Part shown: one piece after another, positions 15,307-46,712 of the stretch
Position numbering within the stretch: the first letter of the stretch is position 1
Layout of the letters: every line of letters begins with the position of its first letter
IMG/VR virus record: IMGVR_UViG_3300002026_000174
Span: 1-54,214 of that record
Source of the DNA: a virus
Taxonomy: Duplodnaviria > Caudoviricetes
DNA length: 54,214 nt
Direction: 5' to 3' (one strand)
Position numbers and translations under genes: made by a program
The notes under the pieces: model-generated
The model's input: the letters and a program-made list of their open reading frames with translations, nothing else
Databases searched by the model: none
Told to the model about the DNA's origin: nothing

Positions 15307-15621
15307 CGATGTCTTCAGTCAAGTTCGTTAAACATGACCCGCTACTCATGGTAGCTGCTCTGGGTTTTCCCCAGATGTCGAGACTATATCTTCACCTTCC
15401 GATTAATGGTAAGGTGTTTCCTGTTTCCCCACCCACTCGGGCAGGTACTGGCTGATAAGGCCATAGTCGTTGAACGTTACGCATATCTCGCTTCACAGCG
15501 TTATGTAGCGTCTTCGCTGCGGATTACCCATCTATCTTTACCTCTTTTACCATACCCAGGTGATTAGTCTGGCCATAGATGTGTTTCCATCATCTACTTG
15601 GTGTGTAAAGCTCTCAGATGT

Positions 15622-16287
15622 CTAACTTAAACGAGATAAGACGTCGGATTTCTTTAAATTTCTTTTATAAGGTATTCGCTCAAGCGTTATACCCTTTTCT
15701 TTAAAGAATTCTTCCTTGATCTTATCATACTCTTGCACTGTGCCATTATTCCACTGTTGCCAGATATGTTTAGGGTTTTTATGTTGAGATCCGTCAGCTT
15801 CAATTACCAGATTCTTTTCTGGTATGTAAAAGTCAACTCTCAGCGGATAACCCGTTGTCCCTACCAGTCCATCAAATTTCTTTTCAGTTTCTATGTGAGA
15901 AAATTCCTGTTGAAGAAACTCTCCCACCTTTTCCTGAAATTTTGATTTTGGTTTGACAAATCCCAAATCACGGTTTAGTTCACTTACCTTCAAACCGTGT
16001 TTGGTAAACATCTTAGAACTATGTCCAATGCCAGTGCAAATCTCCTCCATTGCACAGTACTCATTCTTTTCCCGAATAAAGTCAGTGACTTTATTCTTCA
16101 AGATTTCTCCACCAACATCTTTAGCTATACAGCCTTGATTTTTTTTATCTGGAGATTTTGAAGCACAGGATCTAGAACAGTGGGATGTTTTCAAAGTAAC
16201 AGCATACCCGTCTTTAGGTAAATACCTCGTGCTGAATACTTTCCCACAGGTTGTGCAATTTTTTTCGTGCTCGTTTAAGTTAGACAT
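15622..16287 (-). CDS. Intron-encoded endonuclease 2 (zinc finger plus Vsr/DUF559-like PD-(D/E)xK domain)
   Basis: CTTC...HCSRSC finger and LRVDFYIPEKNLVIEADGSQH nuclease motif; AGGAG RBS before ATG 16287; AT-rich; lies between the two P4 strands of the intron. Confidence 0.8.
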   Translation of the reverse strand: MSNLNEHEKNCTTCGKVFSTRYLPKDGYAVTLKTSHCSRSCASKSPDKKNQGCIAKDVGGEILKNKVTDFIREKNEYCAMEEICTGIGHSSKMFTKHGLKVSELNRDLGFVKPKSKFQEKVGEFLQQEFSHIETEKKFDGLVGTTGYPLRVDFYIPEKNLVIEADGSQHKNPKHIWQQWNNGTVQEYDKIKEEFFKEKGITLERIPYKRNLKKSDVLSRLS

Positions 16288-34968: not shown

Positions 34969-35028
34969 ATGAGTCGATTGTCAGATGCTTTAGTCTCTGG
35001 GGCATACGCTCGGGATCGTTTATTTTAA
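34969..35028 (+). pseudogene. Orphaned copy of the tail-tube gene 5' end (19 aa)
   Basis: TTAGGAGT RBS then MSRLSDALVSGAYARDRLF*, matching the tube N-terminus MSRLSDALLTGAY. Confidence 0.85.
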
Positions 35029-36336
35029 ACCTGTTGAAAACATTTTATTTAACTTGTCCATTAGAAAAGATTCTATTTTGTTGTTATCAAGAACAACATA
35101 TGGAACAGTGATGAGTTTACCATTAAACAATTCAACTAATCTTTTTTTACAATAATCAGATACTTTTTGTTCTTTGAACCCATCCAAATCTCTGTGAAAG
35201 AACTCCACATATCTGTAGTGTTGCATGCCATGAAACTCAATGAAGACGTTGTGGTCAGGTAAGTAAAAGTCATATCTGAATTTGTTATTTGGTAGTTTGT
35301 GCTCCCGAACATAGTTAACGCCATGTTTGTCCAAAATTTCAGCTATCTTTAATTCCCCTTTAGAATCACTGCATTTTCTACACCCGCATTTGTCGTTAAC
35401 GTGCACAGACGGAGTTTGTTCAAACGGGCCGTGTATAGGGCAGATTATTGTTACTTTATCAAGGTAACCAAAATACTCAACCTTGCTGTAGTCGTATCTG
35501 TCGCCATGCACCTCTCTAGCTTTAGCGATGAACTCCTCTGTGGTCGTTCTTCTGTTTTCAAAATTACAATCAGGACAAATACTGGTAATGTGCACGGCCG
35601 GGGTTTGTTGAAACTCGCCGTGTATAGGGCAGATTATTGTTACTTTAGTGGTATTATTTATGTATACCGTTTTACTATAATCATACTTGTCGCCATGCTT
35701 TTCGCGGGCTTTAGCTATGAACTGATCTAAGCCTAACGACCTATCGTTTACCCCACATAGGTAACATTTTTTACCTTCTAAATGCGTGGTTGGTTTTTGT
35801 TGAAACGGGCCGTGCGCCGGGCAGATTATAGATACAGGCACTCTTGATGTGACGTAGTTAACTTGGCTGTAGTCGTATCTGTCGCCATGTACCTTTCTAG
35901 CTTTAGCGATGAACTCCTCTGCGTTTGATCTTATTTTTACAGAGCGACAAGCAGGGCAGTTAAACCCTCTGAGGAAATGAAAGGGGAGATATTGAAATTC
36001 CCCGTGCTCTTTACAAATAACGGTTATTTTAGAATCTCGCGAGGTGTAGTTAACTTGGCTGTAGTCGTATCTGTCGCCATGCACCTTTCTAGCTTTAGCG
36101 ATGAACTCCTCTGTGGTCAGTCTAACACACATAGGTGAGCATAGTGGACAATCACTGTCTATATGTATAGATGGTTTCTGCTGGAACTCCCCGTGAATCG
36201 GACACAATATCGTGACAGGAGTTTGCATGTCTTTGTAACACATTTTGCTATAGTCGTACTTGTCCCCGTGTTTAGCCTTGGCTTTAAGAATGAATTTCTT
36301 AGCATTTAATGCTATTGTTACTTTCATATTTTTCAT
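35020..36336 (-). CDS. Free-standing putative homing endonuclease (five zinc-ribbon repeats plus Vsr/DUF559-like nuclease)
   Basis: Five FIAKARxxHGDxYDYS...IICPxHGxFxQxPxxH...CxxC repeats; C-terminal FRYDFYLPDHNVFIEFHGMQHY; AT-rich; antisense to the structural operon. Confidence 0.85.
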   Translation of the reverse strand: MKNMKVTIALNAKKFILKAKAKHGDKYDYSKMCYKDMQTPVTILCPIHGEFQQKPSIHIDSDCPLCSPMCVRLTTEEFIAKARKVHGDRYDYSQVNYTSRDSKITVICKEHGEFQYLPFHFLRGFNCPACRSVKIRSNAEEFIAKARKVHGDRYDYSQVNYVTSRVPVSIICPAHGPFQQKPTTHLEGKKCYLCGVNDRSLGLDQFIAKAREKHGDKYDYSKTVYINNTTKVTIICPIHGEFQQTPAVHITSICPDCNFENRRTTTEEFIAKAREVHGDRYDYSKVEYFGYLDKVTIICPIHGPFEQTPSVHVNDKCGCRKCSDSKGELKIAEILDKHGVNYVREHKLPNNKFRYDFYLPDHNVFIEFHGMQHYRYVEFFHRDLDGFKEQKVSDYCKKRLVELFNGKLITVPYVVLDNNKIESFLMDKLNKMFSTGLK

Positions 36337-38570: not shown

Positions 38571-40715
38571 ATGATCCTCTTTGAGAGCGACTACGACTTA
38601 TACCCTACTTGCACGGTGCACGTAGAGACCCAAAACGAGAGCTTTAAACGCTTGGCATCCCTGTACAAGAAGATGGGGGTGAAGAACCACGCGTTTCCTT
38701 TAGCGTTGATCCAGCCAGAATTGGCGAAGGTCAACCCTCATGACCTGGAGAGCCTCACGATGGACACCATGGCGAAAATCGTCTATGAGTGTAAGCACAA
38801 CTTTTGGTACTATATCCGAGAGATAGTGCGTGTGCCACCACTGGCAGGCGTGGAGACCGATCCCTTTAATGCCAATAGAGCTAACATCGCGCTGTACTGG
38901 AGCTTCTTTAACCACATCACAACCATCCTCATTCAACCTCGTCAGACCGGTAAATCCTTCAGCACCGACGTCTTGATGATCTACTTGCTCAACATCGGGG
39001 TGACCAACACGCTGATCAACATGCTCACACGCTCAGATGACTTGCGTACACAGAACTTGATACGTCTGAAAAAGATCCAAGAAGAGGTGCCCTTTTACTT
39101 GAACTTCAAGAGCCGAGGTGACATCTTCAACACCGAGGAGATCAACATCAAGTCCTTGGGTAACATGTACAAGGGTAACTTGTCTAACCTCTCACCTAAG
39201 TTAGCCAACAGTGTGGGTCGAGGCTTCACGTCGCCGATTTTGCATGTCGATGAGGCGTGTTTCGTGCCTAACGTGGAAATAGCTCTGTCTGCAGCTCTGA
39301 TGGCCGGTAATGCCGCGCGTGATGCGGCTAGGCGTAACGACATGCCCTATGGCACGATTCTTACGACCACCACGGGCAAGATCGATGACCGTGATGCCAA
39401 GTACGTCTACAAGCTCTGGAACGCAGCCACGGTCTGGGATGAGCTCTTCTTAGACGCGAGAGACGAGGAAGAACTCAACGCTTTGGTGCTGTCTAATTCT
39501 AAAGCGGGTATGAACGAGACCAAACGTGCTATTTTGAACCTCACCTTCAGTCACCGGCAGCTGGGATACACAGATGAGTGGATGAGAAGCAAACTGCAAG
39601 AGACCATCGCCGAAGGTGAAGATGCAGATAGAGACCTCTTTAACCGCTGGACCAGTGGCACACAGACATCTCCTATTCCTAAAGAGTACATCGAGGTGAT
39701 GCGTGACTCGGTGTCTGAGACGTTCAGAACCGAGATCTACAGGCCTTACAACTATATCCTGCGGTGGTACATTACCGAGGAAGATATCGACTACCGTGTA
39801 GCCAACGGCGTGAGCTTTGTGATGGGGGTAGATACCTCTGACGCGGTGGGCCGAGACGATATCGCTTTGGTGATCCGAGACCACACGAGCGCTGCCGTGA
39901 TCTGTACGGCCACCTTCAATGAGCTCAACTTGATTACCTTGGCGGACTTCTTCGTGGACTTCATGATGAAGTATCTTAACTCCGTGATGGTCATTGAGCG
40001 TCGCAGCTCAGCTGTAGCCATCATCGACTACATGATCATGAAGTTCATCGCCTTGGGTGTGAACCCCATGAAGCGACTCTTTAACATGATCGTGCAATAC
40101 TCTCAAGAGAAAAACAAAGAGTACACAGAACTCCAACAGGTTAAGTATTACAACCAAGACTACTTCATCCAACAGAAGAAACATATCGGCTTTACCACTT
40201 CAGGCTCTGGCGTGACTTCTCGCTCTGAGCTCTATAGCACCACATTGATCAGCATGTGTAAGTACACCGGTAACTGCATGCACGATAAGCAGCTGCTGTC
40301 ACAGATCCTGGGTTTAGTGATCCGTAACAACCGCGTCGATCACCCTGAAGGCGGTAACGATGACATGGTGATTGCGGGGCTGTTAAGCTACTGGTTCTTG
40401 GTCAGTGGTAAAGGCTTGGACTACTACGGCATCGACCGAGGTCTGCTCTTTACCCGTAACAGGAACTACCTCGAAGAGAAGTACGAGGGCAGCTCCTTAG
40501 AGCAAGAGGAGATACTGATTAAAGAAGAGAAGATCAAAGATCTCTTAGAGCAGTACAAGAAAGAGGCTAACCAGTTCATCTTAAAGCAGCTAGAGTATAA
40601 GCTGCACGCACTGAGCAATGAGATCAACACCAGCCATAATCGCGCTATTTCCATAGAGCAACTCTTAGAAGATATCCGTCGCACCAAGAAGACCAATCGG
40701 TACGGTGTACGGTAA
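38571..40715 (+). CDS. terL: Terminase large subunit
   Basis: Walker A PRQTGKS, Walker B LHVDE, TTT coupling motif, nuclease GVDTS and DDMVIA; GGAG RBS. Confidence 0.92.
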   Translation: MILFESDYDLYPTCTVHVETQNESFKRLASLYKKMGVKNHAFPLALIQPELAKVNPHDLESLTMDTMAKIVYECKHNFWYYIREIVRVPPLAGVETDPFNANRANIALYWSFFNHITTILIQPRQTGKSFSTDVLMIYLLNIGVTNTLINMLTRSDDLRTQNLIRLKKIQEEVPFYLNFKSRGDIFNTEEINIKSLGNMYKGNLSNLSPKLANSVGRGFTSPILHVDEACFVPNVEIALSAALMAGNAARDAARRNDMPYGTILTTTTGKIDDRDAKYVYKLWNAATVWDELFLDARDEEELNALVLSNSKAGMNETKRAILNLTFSHRQLGYTDEWMRSKLQETIAEGEDADRDLFNRWTSGTQTSPIPKEYIEVMRDSVSETFRTEIYRPYNYILRWYITEEDIDYRVANGVSFVMGVDTSDAVGRDDIALVIRDHTSAAVICTATFNELNLITLADFFVDFMMKYLNSVMVIERRSSAVAIIDYMIMKFIALGVNPMKRLFNMIVQYSQEKNKEYTELQQVKYYNQDYFIQQKKHIGFTTSGSGVTSRSELYSTTLISMCKYTGNCMHDKQLLSQILGLVIRNNRVDHPEGGNDDMVIAGLLSYWFLVSGKGLDYYGIDRGLLFTRNRNYLEEKYEGSSLEQEEILIKEEKIKDLLEQYKKEANQFILKQLEYKLHALSNEINTSHNRAISIEQLLEDIRRTKKTNRYGVR

Positions 40716-40867
40716 CACGTACATAGTGTGGCAACAGACTACTCCTTTTAACCTCACTGTGGGGCCGTGACCACTCGTGGCCCCTTTATCTCATTCAACT
40801 AAAAAGGTTGATGGAATGTCGCACGACTCTTTAGTGTGCGTAGGCAGAACGCATACATCGGTGAGCG

Positions 40868-41110
40868 TTATGGGTAGTAGTCTGTGCTTAGGCTCTGTGT
40901 TCTTTTTCTCCTTTTTAGAGCGCAGTGCTTAGGTGCTGAGGTTTTACTTATGGTTTCTCCTTTAGTCGGTTCATGAACGCGATGCTTCGGTGTAATGCCA
41001 GCGTCCCTCTCTGTGCGTTCCTGTCCGCCTACAAAAAACTCTCTGTGCGTGAGGGTGGTCAGCTTTTGCTGATCTGGTTGGACGGTTGATTTGTTTTCGG
41101 GTTTCTCCAT
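40868..41110 (-). CDS. Possible small protein
   Basis: 80-aa ORF with AGGAG about 12 nt upstream; may be non-coding. Confidence 0.3.
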   Translation of the reverse strand: MEKPENKSTVQPDQQKLTTLTHREFFVGGQERTERDAGITPKHRVHEPTKGETISKTSAPKHCALKRRKRTQSLSTDYYP

Positions 41111-41352
41111 CGACTAGCTAACTCCTATAAAATGGAGTTAGGTCCTATGCGAGTATTTGGCTACTACCAAAGAAAGCTGGATAAACGGAAGATTAGAGTG
41201 TACAAGTTCTTGCAAAAGGACGTTTGAAGTAAACTGAACAGACTAGCCATGGTAGGCTAAAATATGTCGTAGATGCTCCTCAAGTCCTCGACCACTATGC
41301 TGTCAGTCTCGATGAGGTTTTTTCTTGTTTAATTGCAAAGTAGGGGTAACCC
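41109..41352 (+). ncRNA. omega-RNA scaffold of IsrB locus 1
   Basis: Immediately upstream of isrB; shares ACTGAACAG, GCCxTGGxAGGC, CTCC and GCTGTCAGTxTCGA blocks with 46286-46533, with covarying pairs; 5' end approximate. Confidence 0.75.
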
Positions 41353-42434
41353 ATGAACGATGAAAAATTTAACTGGGTACCTGTTGTTTCCTCGTCTGGT
41401 AAGCCACTCATGCCATGCCATCCGGCTAGGGCTAGAGATCTTATCCGTAAAGGAAAAGCGGTACCTAAGTGGAAAAAACAGCTATACTACATTCAACTTG
41501 TAGATAGGGTTGATGGTGATTTACAACCAGTTGCCTGTGGAATCGACCCGGGTAGTAAACGCGAAGGTTATACAGTTAAATCAGCTACTAAAACGTATCT
41601 GAACATTAATTCGCATGCCTGTGGTTACGTTAAAGACAAGGTTAGCTTTAAGCGCGTTATGAGAAAACTCAGACGTAGTCGGCACACCCCGTGTCGTGCT
41701 AAGAGAAGCAACAGATCAAGATCACTAAACTTCATACCGCCATCAACTCGAGCCAGATGGGGGTTAAAATTAAGAATAAGTGCATGGCTTTCTAAGTTCT
41801 ACCCTATATCGGCGTTTGTAGTGGAGGATATTATTTACGAGACAATTGAGGGTAAAAATATCCGCAGCAACAGTAGTTTCTCCCCGCTTCAAGTCGGTAA
41901 AAAATGGTTCTACGAACAACTAAGCAAATTAGCAAATGTGTTTACTAAGGTCGGTAGGGATACATATAACCTCCGACGGGACCACGGGTTAATCAAAACT
42001 AGATTAAAAATGGCTGAAGATTTCTCAGCACATTGCGTCGACTCGTGGGTATTGGCCAATTGGCATACCGGTGGACACCTAAAGCCGGATAATCAAACCC
42101 TCATGATACTAAAGCCAATAGACTACCGGAGAAGACAACTTCACGTTGCTACGCCCGTAAAAGGTGGGTGTAGACGGAGGTATGGCGGAACTATGTCCTC
42201 TCTATGGTGGGTGGGTATACCGAGGACAGAGTTACACTCACAGACACAGTATACGGAAAAAGAAAAACACAACAGGCTAAACTCAGCGATTGTTTGATTC
42301 TAGCACCATCCCCGTGGCTTTATCACCCCGTCAGACATTCTAAATCCATAGACAAAAAGATACGCAATGTAAGTATTTTGAGAGCTAAAAAGGGTAGAGT
42401 TGTGGTTGCCAGCGAAACCACGACGTCCCTCTAA
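41353..42434 (+). pseudogene. isrB: IsrB-like RNA-guided nickase (PLMP + split RuvC, no HNH), C-terminus frameshifted as sequenced
   Basis: KPLMPCHPARAR, GIDPGSK, Arg-rich bridge helix, VVEDI, SAHCVDSW; homology to locus 2 continues in ORF 42204-42434 (VGG..., SPWLY) after a missing segment. Confidence 0.8.
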
Positions 42435-42500
42435 CTGTTGTTAGTAAATTGATTGTTGTCGCTGGAAGGTTCTCCATGATTGCATGTAACAATGCTTTAA

Positions 42501-42543
42501 CACTCTACCCTGGCCAGCGATGGTCTAGGGTAGAGTGCTTTTT
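42501..42543 (+). terminator. Terminator-like hairpin
   Basis: CACTCTACCCT/AGGGTAGAGTG stem followed by CTTTTT. Confidence 0.7.
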
Positions 42544-42665
42544 CGTTGGTTCGCATAACGAGTGTTTGATCTATTTTCAATTACATATATGTATACTGTA
42601 GAAGCAATATCGCTTCCATTATAGCTATCAGTTTCGATAGCACTTACCTTAAAAGGAAAAGTATC

Positions 42666-42929
42666 ATGTGCCAATCAATACAGACCACTCAAACCCAAGA
42701 GTCAAAAAACGGTAAGTACTTCTTCAGAACTGAATGCGGTGAATGCGGTTGCTTGGTAAAGCCAGACCAAGAAATATCGTATGCTGAATTTGCCGAGCAT
42801 GCCGATGGCGGTTTACCTACAGAGTTTATCTGCACTGAACCTGGCACCATCAACGGGTATGAAGTTGTTTCTGGTAATTTTTACCAATGCAATCGCTGCA
42901 AAGAAGAAGATCAGCTCTGTCTTGGCTGA
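42666..42929 (+). CDS. Small Cys-rich (zinc-binding) protein, probable early gene
   Basis: CGECGC and CNRC motifs; AAGGA RBS; AT-rich upstream region. Confidence 0.65.
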   Translation: MCQSIQTTQTQESKNGKYFFRTECGECGCLVKPDQEISYAEFAEHADGGLPTEFICTEPGTINGYEVVSGNFYQCNRCKEEDQLCLG

Positions 42930-43051
42930 GTGGCATGACAAAGCTTTAAAAATCTAAATGAGGCGGCAGGTAGGTCGACACCATGAGAACATCGGATGTC
43001 AAATCCGATACTGATCCACCTGGCTTAATCAAGACCTTAAGGAAATACAAT

Positions 43052-43150
43052 ATGCAATCAACACCACTCACTGCCCGCCAGTACGCAGAAGCCATCATCT
43101 GCGGCCTAATATTCGCCATCCCCATCTTCTACTGGGGTTGGGCATACTGA
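43052..43150 (+). CDS. 32-aa single-TM peptide (not in ORF track)
   Basis: AAGGA RBS; MQSTPLTARQYAEAIICGLIFAIPIFYWGWAY*; followed by a hairpin and T run. Confidence 0.55.
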   Translation: MQSTPLTARQYAEAIICGLIFAIPIFYWGWAY

Positions 43151-43255
43151 GCCCTTAGCGGCTCACGAGAAAACACTCTTACCGGTGTTTTTCTTTTGCT
43201 TACAACGACCCACCCTAACACCTACCTTGCTCGGGTGGTGTTAGGGTGGGTGTGT

Positions 43256-43468
43256 TTAACGCTCGACAATCGAGTTATTGACAGGGTCGTATTTGTAAGC
43301 CAGAGCAACGTTGCGCCAAGCGATGACTTCCTTAGCTAGAGATTCAGCATCCATATCCATGGGGTGCTTATGGTGAGGTGTTTGACCTGCCCGTTTGAGA
43401 ACAGGTTTATAGGGTTTATCGGTTTTGACAGGCACCGGTTTGCCGTCACGGTAGACTCTCGAATCCAT
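43256..43468 (-). CDS. Small hypothetical protein
   Basis: 70-aa ORF directly downstream of the recombinase with AAGG RBS. Confidence 0.6.
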   Translation of the reverse strand: MDSRVYRDGKPVPVKTDKPYKPVLKRAGQTPHHKHPMDMDAESLAKEVIAWRNVALAYKYDPVNNSIVER

Positions 43469-43475
43469 AGTGACC

Positions 43476-44924
43476 TTACTTCTTGCCTTTCACAAGTTTT
43501 GGTGTAGTTTTGTCAAGCCAAAAAGGAATATATGTGCCATTTGCCATATTCACGAGGTCCATCGTAGAGAGGAAGGGTTTATCAGCGGTATCGTTCTTGA
43601 ACGTCCACCAGTCACGTGTATCTAGGAGCACGTCCCAGTCATAGGTCTCTTTGAGTTTATCGTAGAGTTCTTTAGGTTCAGGAATCGTGATCGTGAGATT
43701 GCGCCAATGCTGCTTCATCTGCAAGAGATCAGCGGTGATCTTAATGGCACGACGCAGCTGAGGGTTAGCGTCGATGGTTTGCCTCACTGTCGTGCGACTG
43801 ATTTTGACATCAGGTAACAGGGTCAGGCTATAAGACATCAGTGTGCCTTCTAGGCCAAAGCGGTTGTTCTCTTTGAGGTAGTGAAACTCCGTCAGGGTGG
43901 GTAGCACCCCTTCAGCTTGTGAGACGATGATCTCCAGGTTCACACCAGAGGGACCTGACTTGTTCCTCAGTTGACGGATGGTGACGATGTTGAGATCGTT
44001 GTTCTCGGTCTCACCGGAGTCACGCGTCTTAGGATACTCAGGACCTTTAGTGCCTTGGTTGGTGAGCTGAGACAAACCTAGAGTCTGCCAAAACAGGTTC
44101 GGTAGGAAGTAGAACTTGTCAGTCACGCCTTTGAGCTTATCACCCATCTTCATGTGCTGAAGCTTCTTAGTCGGTGTCGAGTAGGGTCCTGCTCCGATGG
44201 CCATGTCAGTGCCTAAGTGGGCTGTCATGAGCATGTAGTGCCCTGAGCTATTACACAAGCTAGGCAGCTCCATCAGTAAACGTGTCTTAGCCAAACCTAG
44301 ACGCATATGGATGGTGTTACCCCCAGAGTCACCCAGCTCGTTCTTGTTCTGGATCTCTTGGATATCGGCTGTCTCGAACTCGGAGATGCTGTCGATCTCA
44401 CCGAAGGTCGGAAAGATGGTTTTGATGATCTTCCCTTCCGGATCTAGGAAGGGAGTATCGATCATATAGTCCTTCTTGTTCTTGAGCTTATCGCCCTTGA
44501 GGAAGGTTTTCAGGAGCTCGTACCAGTCATTGCCCATGTGCATCGTCTTATCAGTGATGGACAGAATCTTGGCTTTGACGATGTCGAGGTCTTTGAAGTA
44601 GGAGAAGCGGTTAGATAAGGTATTGAAGCGCTCAGGGCTGGCGCTCATCTCGGTATCGTACACGCTCATATAGGGTGAAAACCCACTGGCTGCGACTGCA
44701 TTAGCGGCTGAGAGCATCATGTAGTGCGAGATCGTGGACTTGTAAGTGTTACCACGACCTGCGACGGCGGTGAGTACACCTAAGCCACCGTTGAGGATGG
44801 ATTCGCCGTGGACGCCTTTGACGTAGGAGCCTGTGGGGATATCCAGGAGAGCACCTACGTTGTACATGACTTTCACGGAGTCAATCTCTTTGAAAGCGGG
44901 TTTGCTGTTGAACATCATCTGCAT
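43476..44924 (-). CDS. uvsX: UvsX/RecA-like recombinase (phiKZ-type)
   Basis: Walker A GRGNTYKS, YDTE, IDSISE Walker B, RNKSG; AAGGA RBS. Confidence 0.8.
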   Translation of the reverse strand: MQMMFNSKPAFKEIDSVKVMYNVGALLDIPTGSYVKGVHGESILNGGLGVLTAVAGRGNTYKSTISHYMMLSAANAVAASGFSPYMSVYDTEMSASPERFNTLSNRFSYFKDLDIVKAKILSITDKTMHMGNDWYELLKTFLKGDKLKNKKDYMIDTPFLDPEGKIIKTIFPTFGEIDSISEFETADIQEIQNKNELGDSGGNTIHMRLGLAKTRLLMELPSLCNSSGHYMLMTAHLGTDMAIGAGPYSTPTKKLQHMKMGDKLKGVTDKFYFLPNLFWQTLGLSQLTNQGTKGPEYPKTRDSGETENNDLNIVTIRQLRNKSGPSGVNLEIIVSQAEGVLPTLTEFHYLKENNRFGLEGTLMSYSLTLLPDVKISRTTVRQTIDANPQLRRAIKITADLLQMKQHWRNLTITIPEPKELYDKLKETYDWDVLLDTRDWWTFKNDTADKPFLSTMDLVNMANGTYIPFWLDKTTPKLVKGKK

Positions 44925-44938
44925 GGGGTTTCCTTTTG

Positions 44939-45094
44939 TTATGGCTCAACACATGACTTAGTCAGTGCTTTTTTTACATACTTCCAGCTGTAGTACAGAC
45001 TGTAGTAAACGGTGCCTGTGGTGATCGCCAGCATAAACATGCCCGCGAGCATGAGAGTAGCTAAGACGACGATGAAAGTTTCGATGAGCTTCAT
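44939..45094 (-). CDS. 51-aa membrane protein (not in ORF track)
   Basis: MKLIETFIVVLATLMLAGMFMLAITTGTVYYSLYYSWKYVKKALTKSCVEP*; GAGGAG RBS lies within the IsrB element end. Confidence 0.6.
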   Translation of the reverse strand: MKLIETFIVVLATLMLAGMFMLAITTGTVYYSLYYSWKYVKKALTKSCVEP

Positions 45095-45124
45095 CAGACT
45101 TCTCCTCGACGGATACCCCGCCCT

Positions 45125-46285
45125 TCAGGGTGGGGAGGAGGAGAGCAGGTGGACCTGCCCTCGGCGCAGCAGTGAGTGTTGACGGCGCATGGCTTTTTTC
45201 TGGGTGCGGTGAGCGGCGGCGTGGTCATAGAGACTCCAGGGTGAGTGAGAGACGAGGGTGAGGTCGGTAGGTTTAGCGTTTTGGCATAAGCGGGAGTTAC
45301 TGACGGGGGCGTTTAGACTGAGCCTACCTTGGCCGTCATGACCACCAACCAGACACTGACCGTATTTAGGGTGTATGGCCAGTGTACCCTTTTGGATACC
45401 CAGCGAGAGGCTACCCCCGTAGCGGCGACGCTCACCGCCCTGAGAGGGGTTAAAGAGGGTGAGCTGGCGCCGGATCACGGGAAGCTGCTTCAGGACCAGC
45501 AGAGCTTCGAGGTCAGGGGTGGTATGGCCACCGACCCAGGCGTTAGCTAAGGTCCAGCTGTCCACGCAGTGGGCACTGAAGATGGTGGCGAGTTTGCTCT
45601 TGGTCTTGGGTAGCCCCATGGCTTGGCGCATCTCGTAGGTCTGGTGGCCTTCGACTTTGACCAGCTCGACGCCGTAGGCTTGCAGACGCCGATAGAGCCA
45701 GTGCTTACCAGCCTCGATGGGACTGAAGTTGTTGTTCCAGCGTTTGGCGCCGGCGTGCTGACCTTTGACAGTCTTGGCTTTGACATCCTCGATGACGACG
45801 CACTCGACGGGGTAGAGGTTGGCCAGCCAGGCGAAGATGTTGTACTTGAGCTGCCAGCGGGCGTGGGTGGAAGGCGGTAGCCAGTCCTGCTTACGAGCAC
45901 GATTCGGTCGGCAGGCCCGACACGGGGTCTTGCGCTGACGACGAGCACCCCGAGCGTTAGCGCGTGTCTCCACAGCTTTGCTGATACCTTTACCGTCAGC
46001 GGCGTGGGACTGGATGTTCAGCAGCGTGCGCTTCTCGGATTTCAGGGTGTAGCCTTCCATCTTAGAGCCGGGGTCGATGCCGAGGGCGATGGGTTGGGTA
46101 TCTCCGTCTTCGCGCTCGGTGAGGACGATGTAGAAGAGGCGGCTCTTATAGTGAGGTGTGGCTTTACCTTTAGCGATGAGTTTGCGGGCACGTGCGGGGT
46201 GGCACGGCATGAGGGGTTTACCCGTCTTAGAGACGACGGGGACCCAGCGCTGCTGATGCGGGTCTGAGGAGATGGGTGTGGTCAT
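45125..46285 (-). CDS. isrB: IsrB RNA-guided nickase (intact, ~386 aa)
   Basis: KPLMPCHPARAR (PLMP), GIDPGSK (RuvC-I), Arg-rich helix, VIEDV (RuvC-II), SAHCVDSW (RuvC-III), no HNH; ATG 46285 preferred because the listed start lies in the omega-RNA. Confidence 0.88.
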   Translation of the reverse strand: MTTPISSDPHQQRWVPVVSKTGKPLMPCHPARARKLIAKGKATPHYKSRLFYIVLTEREDGDTQPIALGIDPGSKMEGYTLKSEKRTLLNIQSHAADGKGISKAVETRANARGARRQRKTPCRACRPNRARKQDWLPPSTHARWQLKYNIFAWLANLYPVECVVIEDVKAKTVKGQHAGAKRWNNNFSPIEAGKHWLYRRLQAYGVELVKVEGHQTYEMRQAMGLPKTKSKLATIFSAHCVDSWTLANAWVGGHTTPDLEALLVLKQLPVIRRQLTLFNPSQGGERRRYGGSLSLGIQKGTLAIHPKYGQCLVGGHDGQGRLSLNAPVSNSRLCQNAKPTDLTLVSHSPWSLYDHAAAHRTQKKAMRRQHSLLRRGQVHLLSSSPP

Positions 46286-46533
46286 GGTGATTTCTGCCTT
46301 ACGGCGCTTCGGGTGAACGAGTGAGGGCCCCTTCGACACTGACAGCTTCAGAGGTTACGGGCTAGGGGAGTACCTGTAACGTGATGTGGCCTGCCACGGC
46401 CTTAGCTGTTCAGTATTGCGCCCGCGGTAGGTAAGGGTCTACAGCGCGGGTGTCTAGTACAACCGTTTAGTCTCGAGTTAGGCCCTTGGCAGGGCTGCTC
46501 TCAAGCCCCGGCTTTTAAGCCGGGGTGGTTGAC
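46286..46533 (-). ncRNA. omega-RNA scaffold of IsrB locus 2
   Basis: About 250-nt structured non-coding leader starting GTCAAC; stems ACTGAACAG/CTGTCAGT, GTTAC/GTAAC and CCCCT/AGGGG. Confidence 0.85.
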
Positions 46534-46538
46534 AGATG

Positions 46539-46712
46539 TTAGATGAAATGCGTGAGCTGCAAGACTTGCTCAACAAAGAGGTACCAAGCCCAAAATGGAA
46601 CTATGCAAAAGATAGTAGACCAAAACCCTTGTGCAATCACGACCCCGCCGATCCACGCGAAGATAAGTAGCAACGAGGTCAGGTTAGCGACCAGTGACGT
46701 GAGTGCATTCAT
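46539..46712 (-). CDS. 57-aa membrane protein (not in ORF track)
   Basis: ATGA overlap with the ligase stop; MNALTSLVANLTSLLLIFAWIGGVVIAQGFWSTIFCIVPFWAWYLFVEQVLQLTHFI*. Confidence 0.7.
   Translation of the reverse strand: MNALTSLVANLTSLLLIFAWIGGVVIAQGFWSTIFCIVPFWAWYLFVEQVLQLTHFI

Follow-up and report, generated by a model that had tools for sequence, protein, structure and literature searches.

A divergent IsrB/omega-RNA locus between the terminase and UvsX-like genes of a phage is probably a complete, non-autonomous insertion element

The window analysed here is an IMG/VR virus record of 54,214 bases, estimated to hold about 27% of a phage genome, and it carries two loci for the RNA-guided nickase IsrB. 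The locus studied here, which we call copy 2, was previously taken for a possibly domesticated system that had lost its insertion sequence (IS) ends. We instead read positions 41109–42475 as a complete, non-autonomous IsrB/omega-RNA insertion element of the IS200/IS605-like, ISC1 kind, which belongs to a divergent, AT-rich lineage, shows no sign of having been tamed by the phage and lacks 46 nucleotides (nt) in the window record; we put the probability of this reading at about 0.72. Judged from its sequence, the element consists of an omega-RNA scaffold that starts at the left end, a predicted gene for a 375-residue IsrB nickase, and a structured right end with an ATGA just outside it. In its intact form it is probably active. 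What the observations below show is the omega-RNA, the fold of the protein, the build of both ends and a deletion polymorphism. The features of copy 2, all on the plus strand, are as follows.

41089–41108: presumed 20-nt guide, which is the left flank, directly 5′ of position 1 of the covariance model R1; length taken from the IsrB of Desulfovirgula thermocuniculi (DtIsrB)
41109–41352: omega-RNA scaffold; R1 matches 41109–41317, and extension from there to the start codon is assumed by analogy with published IsrB loci
41118–41141: left-end hairpin, the first stem-loop of the omega-RNA, with CTAACTCC / GGAGTTAG in place of the family CCCC...GGGG
41165–41169 and 41250–41254: TACCA / TGGTA, partners of an adaptor-type pseudoknot (TGCCA / TGGCA in copy 1), read by eye with no formal count
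41278–41282 and 41313–41317: CCTCA / TGAGG, nexus-type pseudoknot, 5 of 5 pairs standard
41353–42297: isrB reading frame of the window record, 314 residues, IsrB-like up to 42198 and out of frame from there on
42193–42199: site of the 46-nt deletion (junction 42198/42199), between two ATGTCC repeats
42204–42434: rest of the target-adjacent motif (TAM)-interacting domain and C-terminal tail, in another frame in the window record and in frame in the intact form
42409–42465: right-end structure, an outer stem CCAGCGA (42409–42415) / TCGCTGG (42459–42465) around an inner hairpin
42431–42444: right-end inner hairpin CTAAC-TGTT-GTTAG, 5 base pairs, overlapping the stop codon as in relatives
42466–42479: right-end tail AAGGTTCTCC (42466–42475), then ATGA (42476–42479), the presumed TAM in the right flank

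Omega-RNA, IsrB protein and the intact form of the gene

The leader of copy 2 is an omega-RNA, as the preliminary description had proposed. Relatives were gathered from genome contigs and viral contigs (395 of 412 and 163 of 252 candidate stretches encoding a relative were found, respectively, and 80 loci were kept from each). The covariance model R1 was built from the omega-RNAs of 33 non-redundant relatives, with both window copies excluded and with a structure taken from RNAalifold plus covarying helices. In the R1 alignment 93.3% of the cells are paired and 36 of the 51 pairs have changed on both sides; 0 of 500 shuffles were as good, and slid controls gave 34–46% paired. Searched against the window, R1 returned exactly two matches, both spanning model positions 1–202 of 202, one to copy 2 (120.0 bits, E 8.8e-29) and one to copy 1 (46533–46328, 127.6 bits). 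On 95 loci outside the training set it gave 98 matches, 54 of them above 120 bits and 44 below.

The pairing of copy 2 is equal to that of its neighbour. The model-fitted alignment, which is biased towards the structure of the model, gives copy 2 a standard pair at 41 of the 46 nested sites and at all 5 pseudoknot sites, making 46 of 51; copy 1 has the same number, and 49 relatives range from 42 to 51. The nexus-type pseudoknot helix is 98.2% paired across the family, with four of its five pairs changed on both sides, and the pairings GTCG (41266–41269) / CGAC (41289–41292) and ACTGAACAG (41233–41241) / CTGTCAGT (41300–41307) are also present. All the compensatory pairs that had been quoted against copy 1 were found again, and the comparison of the two RNAs gave 17 pairs that differ on both sides and 0 that differ on one side only. 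The RNA of copy 2 is indeed the AT-richer, with a G+C fraction of 0.43 against 0.59 in copy 1, and the composition profile concurs. A sequence-only hidden Markov model from 14 viral relatives scored the leader at 93.2 bits over 41167–41316 and covered only model positions 48–204, so the 5′ part of this omega-RNA has diverged in sequence.

The structure of this RNA has clearly been kept by selection. The further claim that selection continued after mobility had decayed is not supported, as both ends keep the architecture of the family and their hairpin arms have changed together. The covariation seen between the two copies can be put down to the deep divergence of two functional lineages (49–50% protein identity) and need not mean selection inside the phage. 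More generally, covariation between omega-RNAs within one genome need not imply selection after domestication, since old lineage divergence suffices.

The open reading frame (ORF) of copy 2 in the window record is a second isrB, as had been described. It matches Pfam RRXRR (PF14239) at 113.6 bits over residues 9–161, the sole Pfam family found, and DtIsrB (PDB 8DMB) with E 2.8e-33 over residues 8–282, and 152 of 301 residues (50%) are the same as in copy 1. The PLMP motif is present, GKPLMPCHP aligning with the family. The reported retention of the three RuvC acidic motifs is borne out by D65 (RuvC-I, GIDPGS), E158 (RuvC-II, VVEDI) and D230 (RuvC-III, HCVDSW), all invariant in an alignment of 46 sequences that includes P0121, the 375-residue protein described below. 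The HNH insertion, whose absence separates IsrB from IscB, is absent here (Pfam finds RRXRR alone); DtIsrB is the best match in both sequence and fold, and IscB structures match partly.

The preliminary description missed the right end of the element and also the point, at 42198/42199, where the ORF ceases to be IsrB. The IsrB match stops at residue ~283 and the last ~76 codons lie in another frame. Set against nine homologues, the window ORF lacks about 16 codons between YGGTMS and VGG and its frame is shifted, while the out-of-frame C-terminal part still resembles the family when aligned with homologues. Among 119 homologues, 100 columns are conserved in at least 95% of the sequences. Copy 2 departs from these columns by 7 substitutions, with 5 further positions removed by the deletion, and the intact copy 1 by 13 substitutions. 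Copy 2 therefore carries no sign of relaxed constraint, as would be expected equally of an active selfish element and of a domesticated one.

Four microbial-mat runs (X1–X4, from two studies and dated 2014–2023) contain this stretch, and their contigs were compared with the window over 40300–43500. Between 42198 and 42193, a contig of X1 (2,919 bases) has an additional 40 letters; because the six letters of ATGTCC fit on either side of these, the insert amounts to 46 nt. Loose contig ends of X3 and X4 at the site agree with the extra letters, and the contigs of X2 break on both sides of it. None of the listed contig pieces from X1–X4 crosses the deleted junction as it stands in the window (10 more pieces were unlisted). 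Read by hand, the extra letters of X1 bring isrB back into frame.

The same intact form is found as P0121, a protein of 375 residues from JGI/IMG and Logan that occurs on two contigs and falls in the same 90% cluster as the window ORF, whose 314-residue form occurs on one. P0121 is identical to the window ORF up to the break and then reads on in frame across the strands that the window ORF lacks and the remainder of the domain, differing from the hand reading of X1 by one residue. Its identity with copy 1 is 49% over 373 residues, and it matches 8DMB in sequence with E 6.7e-34 over residues 8–297. Its structure model (predicted local distance difference test score, pLDDT, 81.7; predicted template modelling score, pTM, 0.80) has 8DMB as its best PDB match, with E 1.6e-25 and a target-normalised template modelling (TM) score of 0.79 over 342 aligned columns. 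The TAM-interacting domain, out of frame after 42198 in the window record, is thus in frame in both P0121 and the X1 contigs.

Intact isrB is the state of most of the sampled population, and the window record is either a deletion variant that arose between the 6-nt repeats or a misassembly. The frameshift had suggested a pseudogene, an idea that was dropped given the intact contigs of X1, X3 and X4 and P0121; a frameshift in a single metagenome record is best compared with other runs before a gene is called dead. Within the covered parts of 41000–42700 the X1 and X4 contigs differ from the window by the 46 nt and nothing else. In the intergenic sequence upstream of the element (40739–40974) the same contigs show eight substitutions and three short deletions (5 nt in total).

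Element ends, guide and insertion site

Copy 2 begins with ATCGAC where the family has GTCAAC, which together with CCCC...GGGG makes up the first helix and stem-loop of the family omega-RNA. The claim that the IS ends had been lost is not supported: the canonical GTCAAC-CCCC has indeed been replaced by ATCGAC and the arms CTAACTCC/GGAGTTAG, but the left hairpin lies in its normal place and a right end is present. The first helix is preserved by one double change (G–C to A–U) and the hairpin by three. This hairpin is a true outlier in sequence: its two outer pairs are C–G in 31 and 32 of 33 relatives, the second being U–G in the remaining one.

The right ends of relatives share a layout of an outer stem of variable sequence, TCCTCCC, a hairpin, GGGGTTTCC, 10–20 nt and ATGA. 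The outer stem lies at a consistent position in ~20 of 55 distinct right ends, as read from the table, and a cyanobacterial group is without it. The flanking motifs TCCTCCC and GGGGTTTCC are unrecognisable in copy 2. The arms of its inner hairpin, CTAAC/GTTAG, are those of the left-end hairpin, and as 0.42 occurrences of this pattern would be expected in all 54 kb, a chance occurrence at the right end is unlikely. Both ends are, on this comparison, present in the family architecture, with their sequence altered and the two hairpins changed together. Such change in step argues for continued coupling of the ends and against decay; it follows that the end hairpins of an IsrB element can alter in sequence at both ends together.

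An ATGA stands just outside the right end in copy 2, copy 1 and relatives alike. In published work the omega-RNA of IsrB starts with a 20-nt guide and the enzyme nicks targets that bear 5′-NTGA-3′ on their 3′ side (PMC9581776), and both NTGA and ATGA are reported as TAMs (PMC9581776, PMC11237433). The order of flank, scaffold and ATGA in copy 2 has the look of an ordinary insertion beside an NTGA motif. The proposed search for guide matches, made within the window, gave nothing beyond chance: the last 16 nt have no other match there within two mismatches, and a single match with three mismatches is at chance level.

One likeness between the flank and the element deserves separate mention. The last 10 nt of the left flank (GGGTTTCTCC, 41099–41108) and the right-end tail (AAGGTTCTCC) are identical at 7 of 10 positions, with AT after both. 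The same comparison in 40 relatives gave 0–5 of 10, and the binomial chance of 7 of 10 is ~0.0035. Chance could account for the likeness, as could a seed-like self-match next to the motif or a preserved start region of the downstream frame.

Relatives, mobility and rival readings

FastTree trees built from 146 sequences place copy 2 together with copy 1, L100 (from a viral contig) and P0108, a single protein of unknown origin; the support is 0.999 with all columns and 0.98 when the alignment is cut to the 290 columns ahead of the break. The branches around copy 2 are all long, so attraction could also produce this grouping. A C-terminal tail of ~35 residues, present in copy 2 (P0121), is common to copy 1 and L100 and absent from most homologues. 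At 49–50% identity the split between the two window copies is old, and by sequence "paralogue" is a fair term when used loosely.

Several results weigh against the reading of copy 2 as a mobile element. No other copy of its lineage was found, and of 3448 hits the closest remaining protein reaches at most 61% identity. The copy-2-type left-end pattern gave five matches in viral contigs, all attributable to chance and none an omega-RNA, and 0 in metagenome contigs, where a protein scan for relatives of copy 2 also returned nothing. In the four runs no contig joins across the element to give an empty site, a weak negative because contigs drop rare forms; the searched collections may also omit records near the window, which bears on both the copy and the empty-site negatives. 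A Y1 (HUH) transposase is absent from the 54 kb of this ~27%-complete record; most IsrB elements of this kind are described as having no transposase in cis and relying on one in trans (PMC13565253). The left hairpin departs from a near-invariant motif and may not be recognised by the standard transposase, and the outer stem of the right end is weak alone, 288 of 5000 shuffles being equally good. Rfam at its gathering thresholds finds nothing in the window, and the HEARO model (RF02033, gathering threshold 83 bits) has no match to copy 2 at E≤10 and gives the copy 1 leader 38.6 bits. The proposed covariance-model check of the leader was thus passed with the clade model R1 and failed with HEARO. 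Given the R1 score we regard the miss as a limit of the Rfam model, which overlooks good IsrB omega-RNAs that a clade-specific model scores at 120 bits.

Domestication, the idea of the preliminary description, would mean that the phage keeps an immobile IsrB and omega-RNA for its own purposes, for instance an RNA-guided nickase or binder that acts on competitors or in regulation. That the lineage is single-copy and without close relatives in the collections searched, that the window has no transposase and that the end hairpin is atypical would all suit it, as would the presence of the element in all four runs with no empty site, the intactness of both RNA and protein in the population, and the X1 and X4 contigs, which vary at 40739–40974 and, apart from the 46 nt, nowhere in the covered element. 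We nevertheless consider domestication improbable, because nothing positive points to it. Both ends retain the family layout with hairpin arms changed in step; the guide position holds the local flank and ATGA follows the right end, which looks like the leftover of an insertion and not like a retargeted guide, and this guide has no other window match beyond chance. Unlike in the nuclease-dead TldR type the catalytic residues are retained, a broken-gene form exists, and in two related phage fragments, whose terminases are 63–69% identical to that of the window, there is no IsrB beside the terminase gene.

Were copy 2 a decaying relic, an old immobile insertion drifting to a pseudogene, the broken gene would be its true state. 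The frameshifting deletion falls in the TAM-interacting domain, where truncation of a motif is reported to have abolished nicking by DtIsrB (PMC9581776), the X2 contigs break exactly at the site, as a mixture of two forms would cause, and neither other copies nor a transposase in the window were found. This explanation is nonetheless very unlikely given the intact form in X1, X3, X4 and P0121 and the absence of the deleted junction from every listed contig piece; in addition, the out-of-frame part still fits the family, the substitutions at conserved columns are fewer than in the intact copy 1 (7 plus 5 lost, against 13), and the omega-RNA pairs as well as that of copy 1. A narrower alternative concerns the ORF only and is compatible with an insertion element: the break may be an assembly artefact of the window record, with no polymorphism behind it. 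Two identical 6-nt repeats border the deletion, it is found only in the window's own contig (one contig for the 314-residue form, two for the 375-residue form) and no listed piece contains its junction. A 6-nt repeat is, however, far below the word length of assemblers, and the X2 contigs, which stop to the left and right of the site, suggest that two forms were present in this sample; an artefact is a possibility to which we give some weight while leaning towards a real variant.

If copy 2 is an insertion element, it could work as follows; transcription, nicking, guide length and homing are the inferred parts of this scheme. A transcript starting in the left flank would yield, by analogy with DtIsrB and with TnpB/IscB, an omega-RNA whose ~20-nt guide is the left flank. 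Joining of the left flank to the right flank creates an exact match to the guide followed by the motif, so IsrB with its omega-RNA would nick DNA in which the left flank adjoins ATGA directly, that is, an element-free phage copy, either the genome after excision or that of a relative infecting the same cell. Repair by recombination with a genome that carries the element would then put it back or pass it on. The phage has its own UvsX-like recombinase and a ligase. The logic of transposon homing in OMEGA systems, including the cutting of element-free alleles of co-infecting phages, is set out in PMC13565253, and the locus is a candidate case of RNA-guided homing between phages.

A stronger version is doubtful. 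In it the element no longer transposes, its altered hairpins being unrecognised, and persists purely as a device for RNA-guided homing or marker exclusion: in mixed infections IsrB would nick related phages whose allele lacks the element, the UvsX-like recombinase would copy the element along with the terminase–UvsX–ligase module into the rival, and the two IsrB elements that bracket the UvsX-like gene would act as a pair. Were this so, the 7 of 10 likeness of flank and tail would be an adaptation, for example one that keeps the start region of the downstream frame.

Copy 2 was also compared with described systems. With DtIsrB (8DMB, PMC9581776) it shares the domain order of PLMP, split RuvC with bridge helix and TAM-interacting domain, without HNH, and a structured upstream omega-RNA with a 5′ guide, pseudoknots and an NTGA-type motif after the target. 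It differs in that P0121 is ~31% identical and has 375 residues including the C-terminal tail of ~35, and in a matched scaffold of ~210–245 nt against the 262 nt given for DtIsrB (PMC9581776). For enzyme collectors the locus offers a compact, AT-rich IsrB of 375 residues together with its guide RNA.

As in IsrB-type ISC1 elements (IS200/IS605 group, HEARO RNA RF02033), the omega-RNA starts from the left end, subterminal hairpins lie at both ends, and the insertion is NTGA-adjacent; the window has no transposase, whose absence in cis is described as usual for them (PMC13565253). Copy 2 departs from that family in its left hairpin (CTAACTCC/GGAGTTAG against CCCC.../...GGGG), in ATCGAC against GTCAAC, and in a short right inner hairpin (5 base pairs) without TCCTCCC or GGGGTTTCC. 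The insert reported in cyanophage Mic1 (PMC11237433) is likewise an IsrB-type element in a phage genome at ATGA; it is described as host-derived and as disrupting a phage tnpB-like gene, whereas copy 2 is intergenic and its nearest sampled kin are copy 1, L100 and P0108.

TldR proteins, the nuclease-dead repressors derived from TnpB, resemble copy 2 in being single copies with an adjacent guide RNA and no transposase nearby. By the account in PMC13565253 they have lost catalytic residues and transposon ends and their guides match promoters, while copy 2 keeps its D/E/D residues and its ends and has the flank as guide. Free-standing homing endonucleases of T4-like phages (PMC13565253) and copy 2 likely play the same role, that of selfish nucleases located among conserved genes of a phage, which could cleave a rival's allele and be copied into it by recombination; copy 2, unlike them, would find its target by RNA guide and TAM and make a nick, not a double-strand break.

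Genomic setting and further observations

Copy 2 sits between genes, flanked by the phage terminase and UvsX-like genes. With names from PHROGs, the order before it is virion structural protein, head maturation protease, small nuclease and large terminase; after it come two small ORFs, the UvsX-like recombinase, IsrB copy 1 and an NAD-dependent DNA ligase. The features of the window outside copy 2 that bear on this account are the following.

15358–15700, minus strand: group I intron match, 40.8 bits, E 4.9e-07, under the gathering score of 50
35020–36336, minus strand: HNH homing endonuclease gene, 438 residues, matching PHROG HNH and homing endonuclease families with a best E of 1.5e-96
38571–40715: large terminase (PHROGs name)
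43476–44924, minus strand: UvsX-like recombinase (PHROGs name)
45095–46533, minus strand: copy 1, used for comparison, with omega-RNA 46533–46328, ORF 46285–45125, a right-end hairpin and ATGA at 45094–45091

Copy 1 occupies a 5-nt gap between the stop codon of a 57-residue hydrophobic ORF (46712–46539) and the ATG(A) of a 51-residue hydrophobic ORF (45094–44939), so that its TAM is the start codon of the next gene. Sub-threshold matches to Rfam HgcC at 45055–45158 (plus strand, 33.3 bits) and 46446–46548 (plus strand, 24.5 bits) coincide with the hairpins at either end of copy 1, on the opposite strand, and are most likely spurious. The HNH homing endonuclease gene and the sub-threshold intron match indicate that the phage carries other selfish elements; the 438-residue protein itself is built of several repeats of a ~55-residue Cys-containing module followed by a C-terminal nuclease region.

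A nucleotide search of the phage collection with 40700–42650 gave no match. The records of L100, L117, L122 and L129, which are fragments estimated at 3–25% complete, hold only distant IsrB genes, and a terminase was not found in them. The left flank of copy 2 resembles that of L122 for no more than ~12 nt, which was treated as chance. In L100 (~1660–1700) and L122 (~2560–2600) two IsrB lineages both end just before ATGAACTGGTT, where an ORF starts with MNWF, and the same target gene may have been struck by two element lineages.

A scan of 40600–42700 for promoters and terminators gave counts at or near the shuffled expectation. Directly downstream of the element, at 42500–42545, a long hairpin ACTCTACCCT...AGGGTAGAGT is followed by a T run; unlisted by the simple terminator scan, it could from its sequence act as a terminator of isrB transcription. 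A little further on, a 44-nt piece (42563–42606) recurs with four mismatches elsewhere in X1, X2 and X3, where it lies on another contig amid unrelated sequence, and may be a repeated phage regulatory sequence.

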